This document shows, in pieces, positions 22,196-27,184 of a DNA stretch of 30,838 nucleotides. Numbering within the stretch: position 1 is the stretch's first letter; every line of letters starts with the position of its first letter. The stretch lies in IMG/VR virus record IMGVR_UViG_2917413769_000005; one strand, written 5' to 3'. This DNA is from a virus (taxonomy: Duplodnaviria; Heunggongvirae; Uroviricota; Caudoviricetes). The notes below the pieces were generated by a model. The model was not told the origin of the DNA and did not search any database. It saw nothing but the letters and a program-made list of their open reading frames with translations. The position numbers were made by a program, and so were the translations under genes.

Positions 22196-22705
22196 TCAGA
22201 AAACTGGATTAATTTTGCGGTGGTAGAGCACTTCCCACAGAAGCGATATCAACTCTTCCTGCCTGATATCCACGGCTTCACTGGCGTCATATTTAGCCAT
22301 CAGCTCATTGATTCGCTCAACAGACAATGGCCCTGCGGAATTTACCGCTGATCGGGAAGATGGGAGACAGCTTTCTTCAGGCGGATGCTCTTCACGCCAT
22401 TTCTTTGCCGCCCTCTCATTCATCAACTGCCATTCGGGATATCGGTTAAATAGCTCACGCTCGGTACTGGTTCGCGCATCATGGCCTTCATCTGCCAGCC
22501 GCGCTGGTTCTGGCTCGCAGCTTTCAGACAAAGCAATATCGTCGGGAGCGTCAAACGGTTTTAACCCCTTGCAGGTGCAGCAAATGCGATCATTAAAATA
22601 ATACTTTTCCTTGTAGTGCAGCTCGTTACCACACTTACGGCATCGCTTAATTTTGTTACTGATGAAATCAATTACTTCCTGCTCTCGCTGTTCTTCGTCA
22701 AACAT
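22196..22705 (-). CDS. hypothetical zinc-ribbon protein (169 aa) in the old/tin-equivalent accessory slot
   Basis: MFDEEQREQEVIDFISNKIKRCRKCGNELHYKEKYYFNDRICCTCKG has a C-x2-C...C-C-x-C ribbon, followed by an acidic/charged 120-aa region. The start at 22705 overlaps the last 34 nt of gpA. I recognise no family for it. Confidence 0.6.
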   Translation of the reverse strand: MFDEEQREQEVIDFISNKIKRCRKCGNELHYKEKYYFNDRICCTCKGLKPFDAPDDIALSESCEPEPARLADEGHDARTSTERELFNRYPEWQLMNERAAKKWREEHPPEESCLPSSRSAVNSAGPLSVERINELMAKYDASEAVDIRQEELISLLWEVLYHRKINPVF

Positions 22706-25281
22706 ACGCGCTGCCCCTGATTCCTGGTGCCAAACAACCTGTCCCACGCAGCCGGATCAGCTTTTTTCAACATTTCCGCATAGCTGCCAACGGGATCATG
22801 CCTGATATCTCTGCTGTCAACATTATGACTTAGCTTCATATGCTGCCACAAATCGGCAGTCTTACGGTCAGCTCCGTTATCTTTTCTGCGCCTCAGCTCT
22901 CCGCTGCTGGTTGCGGAGACAATAAAGCCATCAATTCGCAAACGCTCACCGCGTAGCAATAACGTTAACTGACCTGTGCTCAGTTCTATGCCTATAGATT
23001 TGGCAAAATCATCCAGTGCCGCAATGCGATCGACTGATACAGGAACTGGCCCGGTAACAGCAGGCATATCCCTTTCCTGCTGCCTCAATTCCTGAGCAAC
23101 TTTTAGATAGCTCTCGGCCCTGGCCTGCTCAATATCATCACAATCTGATGCCGTAATGGCATTAGCCAGCGCCTCAAACTCATCAGCAGGTGATTTTTGC
23201 CGTTCCGGTTTGTAGTTTCTGATGCTTTCGTTGAGCCTTTTTTTCTGCTCGTGGGTCATTTGACCAATTTCATACTGTTCAGGCTCAACTGGTGGCGAAT
23301 TTTCACCCTCTGAATTTGTATGTTTTTTGACCTCAGTACAGTTATTGACACGAGTCCTAGAGGGCGCGGACGCGCCCCGAAGGTCAAAATCAAAGTCAAC
23401 GGCCTGCCCGGAGTCGTCTAAAACTTCCGGTTTCTTACGCACAATGCGGTAGGTATGCAGGCGGGTTTCAATTGGTGGGATGTGAACGGCCGGCATCATC
23501 AGACCTTTGATAAGATCCAGATACTCGCCGTAATCATTTGGTTCGTCTTTCTGCTGGTACCAAATGCGCAACGGCAGATCACGGCGGGCAACCAACGCCC
23601 CGCCTTGCAATTGGGTGTATTGCTGCCAGTCGCCAGCATCCGCAGCACGGTGCAGCTCAGCAAATAGCGGGTTTATCTTGTCGGCCTGTTCCTGATTGCG
23701 GAACCGGCGCAGCTCACGCCAGACAGATACCGGCGCGCCGCCCAGAAACTGAAACTGACGGATGCCCCAGCAAGATGCCCAGGCGGTTGCATGTTTTGAA
23801 GTTTCTTTCAGCGGCCTGCCGCTCTCGTCGTCGGTTTCACCGTCGAGCGCGTAGCCGTCAATATTCTTACTGATGTACTTCACCACATAGCCGGTGGCGC
23901 TGCCGATTTCATGATCGATCGGCTTCATATCAAAACGCGGTTGGTTGCCGTGTTTGCCCTGCAACTCTTCCGCATCCTCGCGGGTTGCGTAGTCTTCCAT
24001 CACTTCCAGCAGCTCGGCAGAATGTTCCGGCAGGGAGAACAGCAGGCCGTGCCAGTGCGGCGTACCATCGTGATGAGACTCAGCCACCCGCAAACCAAAA
24101 ACAGGGATTTCACGGCGGGCCAGCTCAGCGCGGATCTGTTGCCATACCCGGTTAAGATAACGCTGCGTGGCTCTTGGGCTGGCACCGTTCCATTTGGCAT
24201 TACGATGACCGAATACGGTATATGCGTGGTATTTGGATGGCGCTGTCAGGGTAAAAAACTGTCCCGCGTATCCGCTTTCGGTGGCGACTTTCTCAAAACC
24301 ACCAATGCGGGTCATGAGTTCAACGCGGCGTAATGCTGGATTAGAAATGCTCTTATCGATCTGCTCAATAAGCGAAATACGCTCTTTGGTGTCCTGGTCT
24401 TCCAGCTCAAGGCGAGCCATGATCGCGCGGCTGCGTTTGCGCCTGGCATCCCACTCATCAACGTGGTGCTTACTGCAATAAGGCGCAGCGCCCCGCTTCA
24501 CATCACCAAAGGCGATATGCAGGTGCTCACGCCAGCGCGCCGCGTACTTTTTCAGGTTACGATGCCAATAGCGATCATCCAGCATCTTACTGATGCCAGT
24601 AGTAGCCTCATCAATAAACAGCGTTCCCCGGCAATACTTTGCCCAGCTCGGAGGCGTCAGGAAGAAAAGCCGCGCGAGGATAGCCGCTTCGGTGTAAAGG
24701 TATCCGGCATATTTGCGATCACTCTGAGTCTCTACCGTTTCGTGAACTTCGCTCAGCACAGACCGCATATAGATAGCAATATCCTGCGCCAGCAGCTCAA
24801 CATCTTCCGGCGTGAAATCCGGCAGGCGGTTAAAGCGCTCAACCAATCCGTGAAGAGTGTGAAACGTGTGGTAAAGCGGGTTTACCCCTTTGAATGCTGT
24901 ATCAGCCTGAGATTTAGCCTCATCGGTCACCGCAATAGCGTATTGCTCATTCACCATGTTGATGGGCGGGAGATCCCTGCGAATAATATCGCGTAGCGCC
25001 AGACGGGCGATGTGCCTGCCCTTCATGGTGTGAATGCTGTCAATACGGGAAGCCAGACGCAGGCGAATAAAGCGAGGTAGCGGCGCAAGGGTAACTTTCA
25101 CCCACGCCAAAAACTCCTGTTCTTGACCCAGCTCGACTAGATCAACAACGGGAGTCTTATCAACACAAATGGCAGCTTTCGGCTTCTGCCATTCGTAAGC
25201 GTACCGGGTGGCGTCTGGTGCGCTACCCGGATACGGAGGGGGCGGCGTTGGAGCGCCACGCCCACTGGCTGCGGTGGTCAT
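22672..25281 (-). CDS. A: replication initiation endonuclease gpA (rolling-circle initiator)
   Basis: 869 aa. FFTLTAPSKYHAY, the HUH-type ESHHDGTPHWHGLLF and the tyrosine motif GYVVKYISKNIDG match the P2 gpA family. The ATGA overlaps the upstream methyltransferase gene. Confidence 0.9.
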   Translation of the reverse strand: MTTAASGRGAPTPPPPYPGSAPDATRYAYEWQKPKAAICVDKTPVVDLVELGQEQEFLAWVKVTLAPLPRFIRLRLASRIDSIHTMKGRHIARLALRDIIRRDLPPINMVNEQYAIAVTDEAKSQADTAFKGVNPLYHTFHTLHGLVERFNRLPDFTPEDVELLAQDIAIYMRSVLSEVHETVETQSDRKYAGYLYTEAAILARLFFLTPPSWAKYCRGTLFIDEATTGISKMLDDRYWHRNLKKYAARWREHLHIAFGDVKRGAAPYCSKHHVDEWDARRKRSRAIMARLELEDQDTKERISLIEQIDKSISNPALRRVELMTRIGGFEKVATESGYAGQFFTLTAPSKYHAYTVFGHRNAKWNGASPRATQRYLNRVWQQIRAELARREIPVFGLRVAESHHDGTPHWHGLLFSLPEHSAELLEVMEDYATREDAEELQGKHGNQPRFDMKPIDHEIGSATGYVVKYISKNIDGYALDGETDDESGRPLKETSKHATAWASCWGIRQFQFLGGAPVSVWRELRRFRNQEQADKINPLFAELHRAADAGDWQQYTQLQGGALVARRDLPLRIWYQQKDEPNDYGEYLDLIKGLMMPAVHIPPIETRLHTYRIVRKKPEVLDDSGQAVDFDFDLRGASAPSRTRVNNCTEVKKHTNSEGENSPPVEPEQYEIGQMTHEQKKRLNESIRNYKPERQKSPADEFEALANAITASDCDDIEQARAESYLKVAQELRQQERDMPAVTGPVPVSVDRIAALDDFAKSIGIELSTGQLTLLLRGERLRIDGFIVSATSSGELRRRKDNGADRKTADLWQHMKLSHNVDSRDIRHDPVGSYAEMLKKADPAAWDRLFGTRNQGQRVCLTKNSESRK

Positions 25282-26297
25282 TTCACCGCATCCATGTAAG
25301 CACTTATGAAGGTTGCTGCGACTTCCGCGCAGATGGCATTTCCGTAGGCGCGCAACTGGCCCACTCTTCCGGCAACCCCATTAACCAGCGGCTTAAGTCC
25401 TGGTTTAACTGGCCTCCACTTTCCATCATGGCAGAAGAGCCAGTCAGCATCTTGCCAGAAGCCGTTAACCTGATGGGGCCAATCATTTTTGATTGCTGGG
25501 TCAGACTGCTGCCCGTCATCGCCGGAGTGATCCCCCTCCCGCCCCTGGTTCCGTCCGATGCACTCGGAGTTGTCCAACCGGATAACTGTGCTGTCACATC
25601 CAGCCGATCCGTTGACAGCTTCCCGTTGCGAATCCTCCCTCCCTGATACCCCCCTTTCCCATCCGTTGCTGTTGGAGTATTCCACCCCGCTAGGCAGGCA
25701 AAATCTTGCAGATTCGACTGCCTGCCCGCCATCATTCTGGCTATAACTTTCAATGGATCCTGATACGCGTTTTTGACGTTGCTCGCGTTCGGAGTGGGCC
25801 ACCCAGAAGAGGCGCTGTCTTATATGCGGGGCACCGAAGCCCGCAGCGCAAAGATCGAGAGCTGTTGCGGCGTAGCCCGTTCCTTCCAAGTCAGTCTGTA
25901 CAATGTCGAACCAACCGAGGCCGTCCTTGCTTGCAACCTGCTCACCAAAGACAGTCTCAGGGCGGCACTGCTCAATGAGATAGTGGAAATGGGGCCAAAG
26001 GTGCCGCTCGTCAGTAACCCCTGCTCTTTTGCCTGACTGGCTGAAAGGTTGGCACGGGCAAGAGCCTGTCCAGATAGGGCGATCGTCCGCCCATCCAGCC
26101 CGGCGCAGGGCGTAAGACCAGACGCCGATCCCTGCAAAGAAATGGCATTGAGTGAATCCGTTAAGGTCATTTGGTGTTACTTCCTCAATAGAACGGGTGT
26201 CAACAACGCCCGGCGCTATGTGCCCAGCGTCAATAAGATTGCGCAGCCATTGAGCCGCAAAGGGATCGATCTCGTTGTAATAAGCCGTCACAATCAC
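25278..26297 (-). CDS. orphan DNA (cytosine-5) methyltransferase
   Basis: FFAGIG (motif I), SCPCQPFSQSGK (IV), VFGEQV (VI, ENV variant), GAPHIRQRLFWV (VIII) and LRAYGNAICAEVA (X) are present. No adjacent restriction gene was seen. See the finding on its second reading frame. Confidence 0.85.
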   Translation of the reverse strand: MIVTAYYNEIDPFAAQWLRNLIDAGHIAPGVVDTRSIEEVTPNDLNGFTQCHFFAGIGVWSYALRRAGWADDRPIWTGSCPCQPFSQSGKRAGVTDERHLWPHFHYLIEQCRPETVFGEQVASKDGLGWFDIVQTDLEGTGYAATALDLCAAGFGAPHIRQRLFWVAHSEREQRQKRVSGSIESYSQNDGGQAVESARFCLPSGVEYSNSNGWERGVSGREDSQREAVNGSAGCDSTVIRLDNSECIGRNQGREGDHSGDDGQQSDPAIKNDWPHQVNGFWQDADWLFCHDGKWRPVKPGLKPLVNGVAGRVGQLRAYGNAICAEVAATFISAYMDAVK

Positions 26298-27184
26298 GCC
26301 CCCTCAGCACACTGCCCGCAGCTCTCACAGTTCCCGCAACCACCTGCCGGGCATCCCTCAACGATGCCCAAAGTGCCGATCACCTCTTTGGCCTTCTGGC
26401 GGTTGCTGGCGTCAGTGCTAACAGAGCGCTGCACGTCGATTTCATGCAGGCGGAAACGGTGGTAAATCTCGCGGGTGGTTTCGGTGTCACTGTTGGAAAT
26501 GACAACCGGCGCGCCATATTTGCGGTTCACTTCCAGCAGCTCCGCCGCTAACTGGCGGTGGTGCTTCTCGGTGAATGGCTCGGTGTGGTATTGGGTGAAA
26601 TTGGCGGTTTCGCTGGCAGGCAGGTACGGGGGATCGCAGTAGATGGCTTCATCCGTTCCAACCATCACTTTGAGGGTGTTTTGAAACGAGCTGCACAGAA
26701 AAATAGCTTTGGTGTCGTTGGCCTTCTCAGCAAACTGGCGGATCTCCGCCTCCGGGAAGTAAGGCGCGCTTTTGTGCTGACCAAACGGGACGTTATAACC
26801 ACCGCTCTGGTTGTAACGCACCACGCCGTTGTAGCCGTGGCGGTTGAGGTACAGAAACAGAGCCGCGCGGGCCACATCAAGCAAGCCTTTTGTACCGTTG
26901 AAAATGCGGCGGTTCTGTAAGTATTCCTCTTTGGAATTGCCGGTCGCAAAGAGCGGGCGGGCAAGATCAATCACCAGCTCAGGATTGCTTTTTACCTCAC
27001 GATAAAGGCGGATCAGATCTGGGTTGATATCCGCAAGAATGTACCGGCGATAATCGGTATTGAGGAACACGGAAGCGCCGCCAACAAAAGGCTCAACGAG
27101 GCAACCAGCCTTTGGTAAATGCGGCAGTAATTCAGGCATCACGCGGCTTTTGCCACCGGGCCATTTGAGTAGAGATCGAATCAT
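26294..27184 (-). CDS. dam: DNA adenine methyltransferase (Dam, GATC-type family) with Cys-rich C-terminal tail
   Basis: LKWPGGKSRVMPELLPHLP, EPFVGGASVFLN and IYCDPPYLP (DPPY catalytic motif) match Dam. AGGAGA SD lies upstream. About 20 extra C-terminal residues read GCPAGGCGNCESCGQCAEGA. Confidence 0.9.
   Translation of the reverse strand: MIRSLLKWPGGKSRVMPELLPHLPKAGCLVEPFVGGASVFLNTDYRRYILADINPDLIRLYREVKSNPELVIDLARPLFATGNSKEEYLQNRRIFNGTKGLLDVARAALFLYLNRHGYNGVVRYNQSGGYNVPFGQHKSAPYFPEAEIRQFAEKANDTKAIFLCSSFQNTLKVMVGTDEAIYCDPPYLPASETANFTQYHTEPFTEKHHRQLAAELLEVNRKYGAPVVISNSDTETTREIYHRFRLHEIDVQRSVSTDASNRQKAKEVIGTLGIVEGCPAGGCGNCESCGQCAEGA

Follow-up and report, generated by a model that had tools for sequence, protein, structure and literature searches.

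What is encoded by a long second reading frame that runs, on the same strand, through a gene annotated as a single DNA cytosine methyltransferase? This question is raised by a locus in the window, i.e., the whole stretch of 30,838 nucleotides of prophage DNA analysed here. Its annotated C5-methyltransferase gene (alpha, frame A; 25278-26297) contains wholly within it, on the same strand and in another frame, a second gene-like frame (beta, frame B; 25304-26170), and the same arrangement is present in 83 relatives. We think that the locus encodes a C5-cytosine methyltransferase formed by two polypeptides, both of them translated from a single mRNA in overlapping frames, and we give this reading a probability of roughly 0.8.

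Two nested frames on one strand

Alpha lies between a Dam-type methyltransferase gene (26294-27184) and a P2 gpA-type replication gene (22672-25281), with overlapping stop and start codons, and no gene for a cognate restriction endonuclease adjoins it. The hallmarks of C5-methyltransferases are present in alpha as PCQPFS (motif IV), FGEQV (motif VI) and PHIRQRLFW (motif VIII), and the strings of motifs I, IV, VI and VIII and of a putative motif X were all located, in agreement with the initial annotation. In a Pfam search PF00145 covers only alpha residues 76-175 (E 4e-14), and in a PDB sequence search residues 73-171 of M.HhaI match alpha with an E value of 2.6e-13. Further on, G319, N320 and A321 of the YGNAI string are invariant in the alpha alignment; no HMM or PDB alignment reaches that point.

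The limits that the initial annotation had set for frame B (its ATG, its final TAA, the single internal TAA and the upstream GAGGAAG) are all confirmed and are collected in Table 1. Re-reading the sequence also returned, at the positions reported, the three G-W-x-T-P-x-A-[ST]-[DN] units of beta (25778-25804, 25661-25687 and 25553-25579) and the 11-residue core at 25361-25393; in frame A the nucleotides of the three units do read WVAHSEREQ, GVEYSNSNG and RLDNSECIG. Third-position GC is similar in both frames (0.57 vs 0.62), as had been noticed. A survey of the modules that carry these units found 1-8 of them in tandem per beta protein, each of 30-45 aa.

Table 1. Features of the alpha and beta frames in the window
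Feature	Position	Strand	Remarks
Alpha gene, annotated C5-methyltransferase, 339 aa	25278..26297	(-)	From the ORF list
Alpha start codon	GTG 26297, alternatively GTG 26291	(-)	GTG 26291 as in relatives beginning MTAYYNE
Alpha motif FFAGIG	26124-26141	(-)
Alpha motif PCQPFS	26040-26057	(-)
Alpha motif FGEQV	25935-25949	(-)
Alpha motif PHIRQRLFW	25803-25829	(-)
Alpha motif YGNAI	25332-25346	(-)
Alpha catalytic core, residues 1-166	25800..26297	(-)	Motifs I, IV, VI, VIII
Alpha spacer, residues 168-277 (HSEREQ...WPHQV)	25467..25796	(-)	Stop-free, modelled as disordered, sequence unconstrained
Alpha C-terminal element, NGFW..DWLFCHDGKWRPVKPG..RVGQLRAYGNAI..	25281..25466	(-)	Putative motif X including YGNAI; invariant columns in the alpha alignment
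Beta ORF, +1 frame	ATG 26170 to TAA 25304-25306	(-)	One internal TAA at 25820-25822
Shine-Dalgarno-like GAGGAAG for beta	26180-26186	(-)	Nine nt 5' of the ATG
Beta 5' part, 116 codons	25823..26170	(-)	ATG 26170 to the codon preceding the premature stop
Beta helix and beta-hairpin element (LQARTASVGSTLYRLTWKERATPQQLSIFALRASVPRI)	25823..25936	(-)	Dual-coded with alpha motifs VI-VIII
Premature TAA in beta	25820..25822	(-)	Ser codon TCA in relatives; alpha ATC to ATA, Ile kept
Beta putative recognition module 1 (GWPTPNASN...DFACLA)	25688..25804	(-)	Frame B is the selected frame
Beta putative recognition module 2 (GWNTPTATDGKGGYQGGRIRNGKLSTDRLDVTAQLS)	25580..25687	(-)	Same module recurrent in many beta proteins
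Beta putative recognition module 3 (GWTTPSASDGTRGGRGITPAMTGSSLTQQSKMIGPI)	25472..25579	(-)	Frame B is the selected frame
Beta C-terminal element, 37 residues, motif-IX-like	25361..25471	(-)	Fully dual-coded with alpha NGFW...GRVG
CAG (Gln) in beta, LNP to LNQ	25400..25402	(-)	Every other beta has Pro; alpha CCA vs CCC, Pro kept
Beta stop TAA	25304..25306	(-)	9 codons ahead of the alpha stop

The openness of the +1 frame exceeds by far what chance would give. It forms a single open stretch of 242-361 codons (median 86% of the gene) in 83 of 84 loci, whereas synonymous-codon shuffles that keep protein A give about 4.8 stops in this frame; the +2 frame of the 84 loci has about 18 stops. The excess extends to both frames. 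Across the variable region, between motifs VIII and IX, frame A has no stop in 71 loci vs 4.0-5.1 expected per locus, with 514 stops in frame C, and the 5' part of frame B has a single stop in the same number of loci, the window's own, vs 1.56 expected per locus. Because the loci are phylogenetically related, these per-locus probabilities do not multiply.

Start signals for beta are conserved as well. A Shine-Dalgarno sequence and ATG at alpha codon 42 or 38 are present in 55/71 loci: 39 have them at codon 42, with the same Shine-Dalgarno sequence as the window, and 16 have GAAAGGAG and an ATG at codon 38. The alpha/beta layout is retained in Kagunavirus and in Rhodobacter, Burkholderia, Vibrio and EBPR phages, and beta accompanies alpha in every lineage examined.

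Beta is a very large family and is almost never annotated. A beta profile matches 19,982 cluster representatives (7,874 with E<=1e-30), and a search of 50,697 annotated phage records found the alpha/beta family in 218. Beta proteins form PHROG families of their own, which are labelled DNA methyltransferase. The blastn matches that cross genus borders come from the beta C-terminal stretch (25361..25471).

Selection along the gene and damage in this copy

Along the gene, the constrained frame alternates. Pooled dN/dS for frame A is 0.04 in the region ahead of beta; for frames A and B it is 0.19 and 1.16 in the core, 0.93 and 0.27 in the variable region, and 0.49 and 0.51 in the end region, values that are confounded as estimates in overlapping frames and unambiguous in their direction. 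The comparison of individual pairs gives the same picture: in the early core omega A is lower than omega B in all 1,793 of 1,793 pairs (0.13 and 1.49), and in the variable region omega B is lower than omega A in 780 of 780 (0.12 and 2.74). The free positions of the variable region are the third positions of frame B. Thus, in motifs I-VIII the constraint is on alpha only, and in the variable region it is on beta only, with alpha merely kept free of stops.

The position profile places the hand-over at about alpha codon 121, up to which (through codon ~120) only frame A is constrained; the beta leader, its first ~80 codons, is unconstrained. Over the beta helix and hairpin (25823..25936) the A3/B2 diversity drops to 0.15-0.30, and G87, S88, T89, W95, K96, P101, R110 and S112 of this element are invariant in the beta alignment. 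In the last ~37 shared codons all three codon positions are conserved (diversity 0.07-0.3), and Q261, L262, P264, W269 and L270 of the beta C-terminal element are invariant, P264 with the exception of the window. From this pattern we take beta to be a real, conserved nested gene under purifying selection, with its own Shine-Dalgarno sequence and ATG. For 25472-25804 the data refute the suggestion that frame B is a fossil kept by constraint on frame A, since amino-acid constraint there lies on frame B and is absent from frame A.

In the window, however, beta is damaged. Among the 84 loci it is the sole copy in which frame B is interrupted; the other 83 are open at 25820, and none of them has the TAA. 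The changes in the window were read against the copy of Hafnia alvei (L085), from which the block holding the LNQ differs at only four positions. Judged against its relatives, the TAA is a derived nonsense change that is silent in alpha. The second change, at 25401 (A in the window, C in Hafnia), replaces the otherwise invariant P264. With a nonsense codon and a substitution at an invariant proline in beta, this prophage copy is probably inactive or impaired as a methyltransferase, even though the annotated ORF is intact. The initial annotation had offered, as one option, an overprinted gene possibly now broken by one stop, and this is the option that the data favour, given the start signals, the purifying selection in the variable region and the derived, alpha-silent TAA.

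An error of assembly or sequencing, with beta intact in the real phage, would also account for the internal TAA. The window differs there from the Hafnia copy by a single base and all the other copies are open at that site, both of which speak for an error. The public record of the genome carries an identical gene sequence, which is weak support for the stop because that record is possibly the same assembly. A further point is the LNQ in place of the invariant LNP, a second and independent change nearby that damages beta and is silent in alpha. We consider an error rather improbable.

A proposed two-polypeptide enzyme and its alternatives

Predicted structures agree with the division seen in selection. 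In the AF2 model of alpha, residues 1-170 reach pLDDT values of 80-94, residues 172-290 stay at about 25 without secondary structure, and the C-terminal helix of the putative motif X (324-338) returns to 76-90. Foldseek matches the alpha model to M.HaeIII and M.HhaI (prob 1.0) and to DNMT1 over ~170 columns, the confident part of the model corresponding to the large domain of M.HhaI and M.HaeIII. A folded target recognition domain (TRD) and a motif IX between motifs VIII and X are absent from the alpha chain, according to the model and to an omega A of ~0.9-2.7 there. An IX-like string, RPVKPG..PLVNG, is also found in alpha, in the same register. Beta modelled alone is of low confidence (mean pLDDT 54, and below 40 for residues 1-65); higher values, 72-79, are reached by a helix (residues 66-85) and a hairpin (residues 92-112).

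When the two translations were searched separately, as had been envisaged, frame B matched more than 4,818 predicted proteins, but none of its matches in Pfam, NCBIfam or PDB sequences was meaningful, by single sequence or by profile (chance glyoxalase matches, E ~0.02); for the beta model, which is of low confidence, Foldseek returned no match among PDB folds. The beta end has the invariant pattern Q-L-x-P....W-L-M-G-x-P..W, with no statistical match to PF00145 or PDB, and we take this pattern to resemble motif IX of M.HhaI (RKLHPRECARVMGYPDSY). The names motif IX for the beta end and TRD for the beta modules are therefore putative, coming from position, pattern and analogy.

In the enzyme that we propose, alpha would provide the catalytic large domain with motifs I-VIII, followed by a spacer of about 110-120 residues, in which only freedom from stops would matter, and by a conserved C-terminal element finishing in motif X. 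Beta would be initiated at its own Shine-Dalgarno sequence and ATG within alpha, at about codon 42, and would consist of a disposable leader, the helix and hairpin, a variable number of W-P-T-P-x-A-x-D modules of 30-45 residues at the position of the target recognition domain, and the motif-IX-like end (GGQLNP..S.WLMG.P..W). Together, these beta elements would be the counterpart of the small domain of a monomeric C5-methyltransferase, and beta appears to encode the DNA-recognition half of the enzyme. We infer that beta is translated, that alpha and beta assemble, that beta sets the sequence specificity and that activity needs both chains, as in M.EcoHK31I.

Beta might instead be a genuine overprinted protein working outside the methyltransferase, e.g., a regulator or an anti-defence factor, with alpha alone as the enzyme. 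The lack of detectable homology of beta to known TRDs, Pfam, NCBIfam or PDB entries, and the weak model of isolated beta, are what one would expect from such a protein. However, the whole variable region of alpha is unconstrained and disordered, and therefore alpha alone is without a recognition domain. Moreover, beta ends in a motif-IX-like signature, it always lies exactly at the small-domain coding position, it co-occurs with alpha in every lineage examined, and the M.EcoHK31I precedent points to a methyltransferase role. In our opinion, a role of beta outside the enzyme is quite improbable.

Another reading is a programmed +1 frameshift after motif VIII, perhaps with a return before motif X, which would yield a single chain or isoforms; recoding of this kind had been put forward in the initial annotation. 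Many database proteins do fuse an alpha core with the TRD/IX part of beta, and a Klebsiella lineage carries a slippery tract of G7-G13 within module 1. Nevertheless, the fusion junctions are heterogeneous and no conserved shift site was found. Of ten fused sequences read, two lack motif VIII, and in every one the chain terminates in frame B before alpha motif X is reached; most of the fused entries listed are one sequence on one contig. In the DNA examined, the fusions are caused by a G10 tract or a simple indel, the Pseudomonas fusion being a plain 1-nt indel. In the window there is no homopolymer run, and thus no phase-variable tract, beyond G6. Furthermore, both frames are open beyond the need of a shifting ribosome: frame A through the variable region, and frame B over the ~120 codons that lie upstream, where it has a Shine-Dalgarno sequence and an ATG of its own. 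A chimeric query matched many full-coverage proteins, which raised the idea of a conserved single-chain ancestor or isoform; the idea was rejected on the same grounds of differing junctions and loss of motif VIII or X. Judged by their sequences, the database proteins that join both frames are sporadic frameshift variants, and we find programmed shifting very hard to credit. Database entries with WPTP repeats and LNP..WLMG endings, which the initial annotation had placed in C-terminal halves of some phage methyltransferase-like proteins, are beta ORFs or alpha-beta frameshift fusions.

That frame B is a non-functional shadow of frame-A constraint and codon usage has next to no chance, for even if frame A explains frame-B conservation in the motif I-VIII core (omega B 1.2-1.5), the reversed omegas in every variable-region pair, the free third positions of frame B, the stops expected from shuffles that keep protein A and the conserved start signals of beta all speak against it.

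Known systems and consequences for annotation

A search of the literature for a two-subunit or overlapping-gene account of this phage family found none. There is one documented precedent for a nested, two-chain C5-methyltransferase, M.EcoHK31I (E. coli HK31, YGGCCR), which has the same nested layout as our locus. Its beta lies inside the alpha gene in the other frame, and the chains must associate for methyltransferase activity (PMC2836561); the N-terminal part of its beta is dispensable (PMC2836561; PMC3404938), which parallels the unconstrained beta leader described here. The small domain of C5-methyltransferases comprises the variable region and motif IX (PMC3404938). The predicted TRD of M.EcoHK31I was placed in alpha (PMC2836561, PMC3404938), whereas in the present family selection on the variable region acts through the beta frame only, modelling agrees in assigning the whole region to beta, and the alpha counterpart is a spacer. 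The two systems also differ in context and size, M.EcoHK31I being half of a restriction-modification pair with a beta of 176 aa, and ours an orphan prophage gene between dam and a P2-type replication gene, with betas of about 230-490 aa and a variable number of modules.

M.AquI is a natural C5-methyltransferase split in the variable region into two assembling polypeptides (PMC3404938). In our locus, by contrast, motif X stays on alpha and DNA of ~290 codons is common to both genes. The adjacent genes of M.AquI are consecutive and are not known to overlap. In phage lambda, Rz and Rz1 are nested genes (PMC9409062). As proposed for our locus, one gene lies wholly within another in a different frame and the products serve the same process. 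Rz1 is short, about 60 codons, whereas the overlap here covers about 250-360 codons and the constrained frame alternates along the gene.

The Bacillus phages SPR, phi3T and rho11s, studied in the Trautner laboratory, reportedly encode multispecific C5-methyltransferases with tandem, exchangeable recognition units of ~40-50 aa. By description, these units look similar to the 1-8 beta modules and their cassette-like exchange, although each of those enzymes is a single chain from one frame and ours would use two. As a tentative extension, which we would sooner bet against, the W-P-T-P modules may be independent, exchangeable recognition cassettes of multispecific enzymes, one module per target. 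Phages might then re-programme protective methylation by cassette swaps and, in some lineages, by a poly-G on/off switch of the alpha/beta layout, all of it in a frame that annotation pipelines pass over. Among the long same-strand overlapping genes of prokaryotic viruses, the family might then be one of the largest sets. A block of 98-100% identity is common to the P2-like prophage of the window and an unrelated Hafnia prophage, which suggests cassette swapping. Single-linkage clustering was tried for defining module types and was dropped because the common W-P-T-P anchor merges most modules into one group.

These results concern a methyltransferase family that is very common in phages and prophages and is annotated as one protein. 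They mean that the middle third of that protein is a meaningless spacer, and that the part most likely to read the DNA sequence is encoded by an overlapping gene that is not annotated. REBASE-style inference of specificity from the annotated variable region would use the wrong frame, and in structure databases the models of this protein show a disordered segment that has no explanation. Because a +1 indel gives a long chimeric ORF, frameshifted copies are taken for intact "DNA cytosine methyltransferase" entries. It would likewise be misleading to clone the annotated ORF with silent recoding, or to call inactivation from alpha alone. The locus offers an unusually clean and testable same-strand overlap of ~290 codons, with constraint alternating between the frames along the gene and true dual coding in about 37 codons.

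In phage K1ind2, beta is named 'Mte8-like protein' in GenBank, a name for which we found no functional literature and which appears to have been taken over from a frameshift-fused P. putida entry (P0467) matched by BLAST.

The two frames of the methyltransferase gene

The gene for the C5-methyltransferase (alpha, frame A) is located in a P2-like prophage (record GCA_005781065.1), with a Dam-type methylase on one side and a P2 gpA-type replication gene on the other. The alpha start overlaps the stop of the upstream Dam-type methylase in GTGA (26294–26297) and its stop overlaps the start of the downstream replication gene in ATGA (25278–25281), an arrangement suggesting that dam, alpha and A are translationally coupled. 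The true alpha start may be GTG 26291 rather than 26297, giving MTAYY as in relatives. The initial annotation had described a second frame inside this gene (beta, frame B), and it was correct: when the sequence was re-read, the positions it had given held for all three G-W-x-T-P-x-A-[ST]-[DN] units, for the C-terminal 11-residue string of frame B and for what frame A reads over those bases. A Pfam search recognised no domain in the translation of frame B, and the PF00145 match in frame A covers residues 76–175 only.

Features of the overlapping frames in the window
Feature	Position	Strand	Remark
Alpha, annotated methyltransferase ORF	26297 to 25278	minus	339 aa
Beta, +1 frame	ATG 26170 to TAA 25304	minus	GAGGAAG nine nt upstream of ATG
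Internal TAA, the single one in frame B	25820–25822	minus	

Two minor observations concern the locus itself. Alpha residues 1–46 (26160–26297; AYYNEIDP..AAQWLRNLI) give about 45 residues ahead of the FxGxG-like FFAGIG; this stretch shows high conservation and a confident model, yet the Pfam, TIGR00675 and PDB alignments begin at residues 37–76, and the N-terminal motif order may differ from that of canonical C5-methyltransferases. Antisense to the gene, plus-strand ORFs of 87–142 codons (25218–25646, 25706–25978, 25773–26036 and 26049–26465) showed no sign of being genes and are probably a side effect of stop-poor, doubly constrained sequence.

Open frames, initiation and fused proteins

Eighty related loci from viral contigs were compared together with those of Salmonella phage SEN5, an E. 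coli prophage and phage N15. Of the 84 loci, 83 have a +1 frame that is one unbroken stretch of 242–361 codons, with a median coverage of 86% of the gene; about 4.8 stops are expected when the synonymous codons of frame A are shuffled, and the +2 frame has about 18. The proposal of an overprinted gene that is now broken by one stop is upheld, the TAA being peculiar to the window. In none of 71 loci is the variable region (132 codons on average) interrupted in frame A, where 4.0–5.1 stops per locus are expected with frame-B codons shuffled, and the third frame has 514 in total; in the core of these loci, the only frame-B stop is that of the window, against an expectation of 1.56 per locus. The beta ATG lies at alpha codon 42 behind GAGGAAG or AAGGAAG in 39 loci and at codon 38 behind GAAAGGAG in 16; the remaining lineages start beta between codons 22 and 32, and phage N15 does so later, at codon 94, behind GGGAGG. 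Openness of both frames where the sequence is free, together with these start signals, fits two separately initiated polypeptides.

Beta residues 1–78 (25937–26170) evolve free of amino-acid constraint and are disordered in the model, yet remain open from a conserved Shine-Dalgarno sequence and ATG. Most lineages initiate far upstream, and N15 about 50 codons later.

Recoding of alpha into frame B had been considered as well. Proteins joining both frames do exist, as many cover fully a chimeric query made of the alpha core and the beta TRD/IX, some of them under RefSeq names. However, a frame-changing ribosome would need neither kind of openness, yet both frames are kept open, and the frame junction falls in a different place in each fused protein read, so that recoding is not supported. 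A conserved single-chain form was rejected too: all ten fused proteins read end in the beta frame, before motif X of alpha, two of them lack motif VIII, and the fused entries listed are mostly one sequence on one contig each. They are frameshift variants, accepted by gene callers because both frames are open.

In one Klebsiella prophage lineage the junction is a G10 tract in module 1 (L092:2044–2053 and L093:2044–2053, two assemblies), where the alpha frame upstream continues as the beta frame downstream, leaving the alpha C-terminus with motif X in the third frame. Among 31 viral contigs (L095–L125), this tract has the length G8 in 24, G9 in five, and G7 and G11 in one each; G8 and G11 give the normal alpha/beta layout, and protein variants imply G13. 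Such length differences may reflect a phase-variable methyltransferase or, in part, homopolymer sequencing error. The Pseudomonas fusion is a simple indel. Frameshift chimeras are present among public "DNA cytosine methyltransferase" entries (P0459, L094:1501–2412; P0402, L093; P0467; P0480; P0482); a RefSeq MULTISPECIES Pseudomonas protein is one of them, as is the P. putida "MTE8-ECOLI homolog" Q9Z406. They carry no pseudogene flag because both frames are open.

More than 4,818 predicted proteins, 246–488 aa long and all lacking a Pfam domain, match the translation of frame B. An exhaustive search with a profile built from 54 of these proteins matched 19,982 cluster representatives, 7,874 at E ≤ 1e-30. 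By tblastn, 218 phage records carry frame B beneath a gene annotated as a cytosine methylase, with hosts including Escherichia, Klebsiella, Salmonella, Rhodobacter, Burkholderia, Xanthomonas, Pseudomonas and Vibrio, and the +1 relationship is kept in all six distant phages read directly.

Alternating constraint and module exchange

Selection was estimated by pairwise Nei-Gojobori counts on ungapped alignments of 71 distinct genes.

dN/dS along the gene in the two frames
Region	Frame A	Frame B
Before frame-B start	0.04	not relevant
Motif I–VIII core	0.19	1.16
Variable region, motifs VIII to IX	0.93	0.27
Last shared stretch	0.49	0.51

The third frame exceeds 1.4 in all regions. Omega is higher in frame B than in frame A in all 1,793 pairs for the early core and lower in all 780 pairs for the variable region (medians 0.12 vs 2.74), values that do not support a fossil frame preserved by constraint on the other. 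In the column-wise diversity, the third position of frame A is the only free one as far as about codon 120 of alpha. Both frames come under constraint from codon 121 (A, VASKDGLGWFDIVQTDLE...AAGFGAPHIRQR; B, LQAKT...GSTLYKLTWK...LRAS), in the modules the frame-B third position is free, and in the last ~37 shared codons (frame A, NGFW.DADWLFCRDGKWRPVEPG.FPLA.G..RVG) all three positions are conserved; downstream, constraint is on frame A only (LRAYGNAI...). This triple-constrained stretch explains the 70–80% nucleotide identity found by blastn between phages of very different hosts. The dual-coded end (25361–25471) holds a motif-IX-like string in both frames in the same register (alpha, RPVKPGLKPLVNGVAGRV), with Pro and Gly shared via CCC(G) and GGGG runs, and the pair might be a trace of the overlap's origin.

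Beta proteins share a variable leader, a helix-hairpin element, one to eight modules, mostly of 30–45 residues and opening with W-P-T-P-x-A-x-D, and a fixed end; the same modules reappear in differing combinations. The three-module block of the window (25398–25817) is 98–100% identical to that of a Hafnia alvei gene in a different prophage context with DUF551 and integrase (L085:1975–2400), while the flanks of the two genes are only 65–88% identical. Such a block in divergent flanks suggests that the recognition region was recently exchanged as a cassette.

A putative two-chain enzyme and its copy in the window

In C5-methyltransferases, the large domain comprises motifs I–VIII together with X; the small domain is made up of the variable region and motif IX (PMC3404938), a split that the proposed alpha/beta arrangement matches exactly. 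M.EcoHK31I has a beta chain encoded wholly within the alpha gene in another frame; its alpha chain carries motifs I–VIII, X and a predicted TRD, its beta chain carries motif IX, activity needs association of both, and the first 42 beta residues are dispensable in vitro (PMC2836561, PMC3404938). Compared with this published description, the variable region here is on beta instead of alpha. We think that, with a probability of roughly 80%, the gene encodes a nested methyltransferase of alpha and beta chains like M.EcoHK31I, in which beta carries the recognition region.

An AlphaFold2 model of alpha from a 46-sequence alignment has a confident core (residues 1–170, pLDDT 80–94), a middle segment of 120 residues without secondary structure (pLDDT ~25), a weakly modelled C-terminal hairpin region and a confident terminal helix with motif X (pLDDT 76–90). 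M.HaeIII, M.HhaI and DNMT1 align by fold to the confident part over ~170 columns; by sequence, M.HhaI residues 73–171 align to it. Beta alone is weakly modelled (mean pLDDT 54), with residues 1–65 disordered, a helix (66–85) and hairpin (92–112) at pLDDT 72–79, partly ordered modules and a motif-IX-like end of low confidence, and this model had no fold match in the PDB. Such weakness would be expected of a subunit folding against its partner and DNA, although it proves nothing.

Existing annotation covers the family in part. PHROGs assigns beta to phrog_1008 and phrog_31772, both "DNA methyltransferase", and alpha to the separate phrog_363; NCBIfam and Pfam hold no beta model. Both overlapping ORFs are annotated in GenBank for phages K1ind1 (L086:702–1631, 790–1587) and K1ind2 (L087:702–1526, 790–1482), beta being named "Mte8-like protein" or a second "DNA methyltransferase", and for Burkholderia phage vB_PL1 (L089:991–1758) the beta-frame ORF alone is annotated, as a hypothetical protein, with no alpha. 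No paper presenting the phage enzymes as two-subunit, or their genes as overlapping, was found in our literature search. The family is of interest for its size, for how cleanly constraint alternates and for its consequences in annotation and in predicting specificity.

At 25821 the window has A where the Hafnia gene has C, turning beta TCA (Ser) into TAA, with Ile unchanged in alpha (ATC to ATA); this difference could conceivably be a sequencing error. A second A for C, at 25401, changes the invariant beta LNP into LNQ and keeps Pro in alpha. Past the TAA, the in-frame restart codons TTG 25753, ATG 25735 and ATG 25732 have no Shine-Dalgarno sequence ahead of them. Because of these features, beta is most probably non-functional in the window, and should it be needed, as it is in M.EcoHK31I, the methyltransferase of this prophage would be inactive despite its intact annotated ORF.
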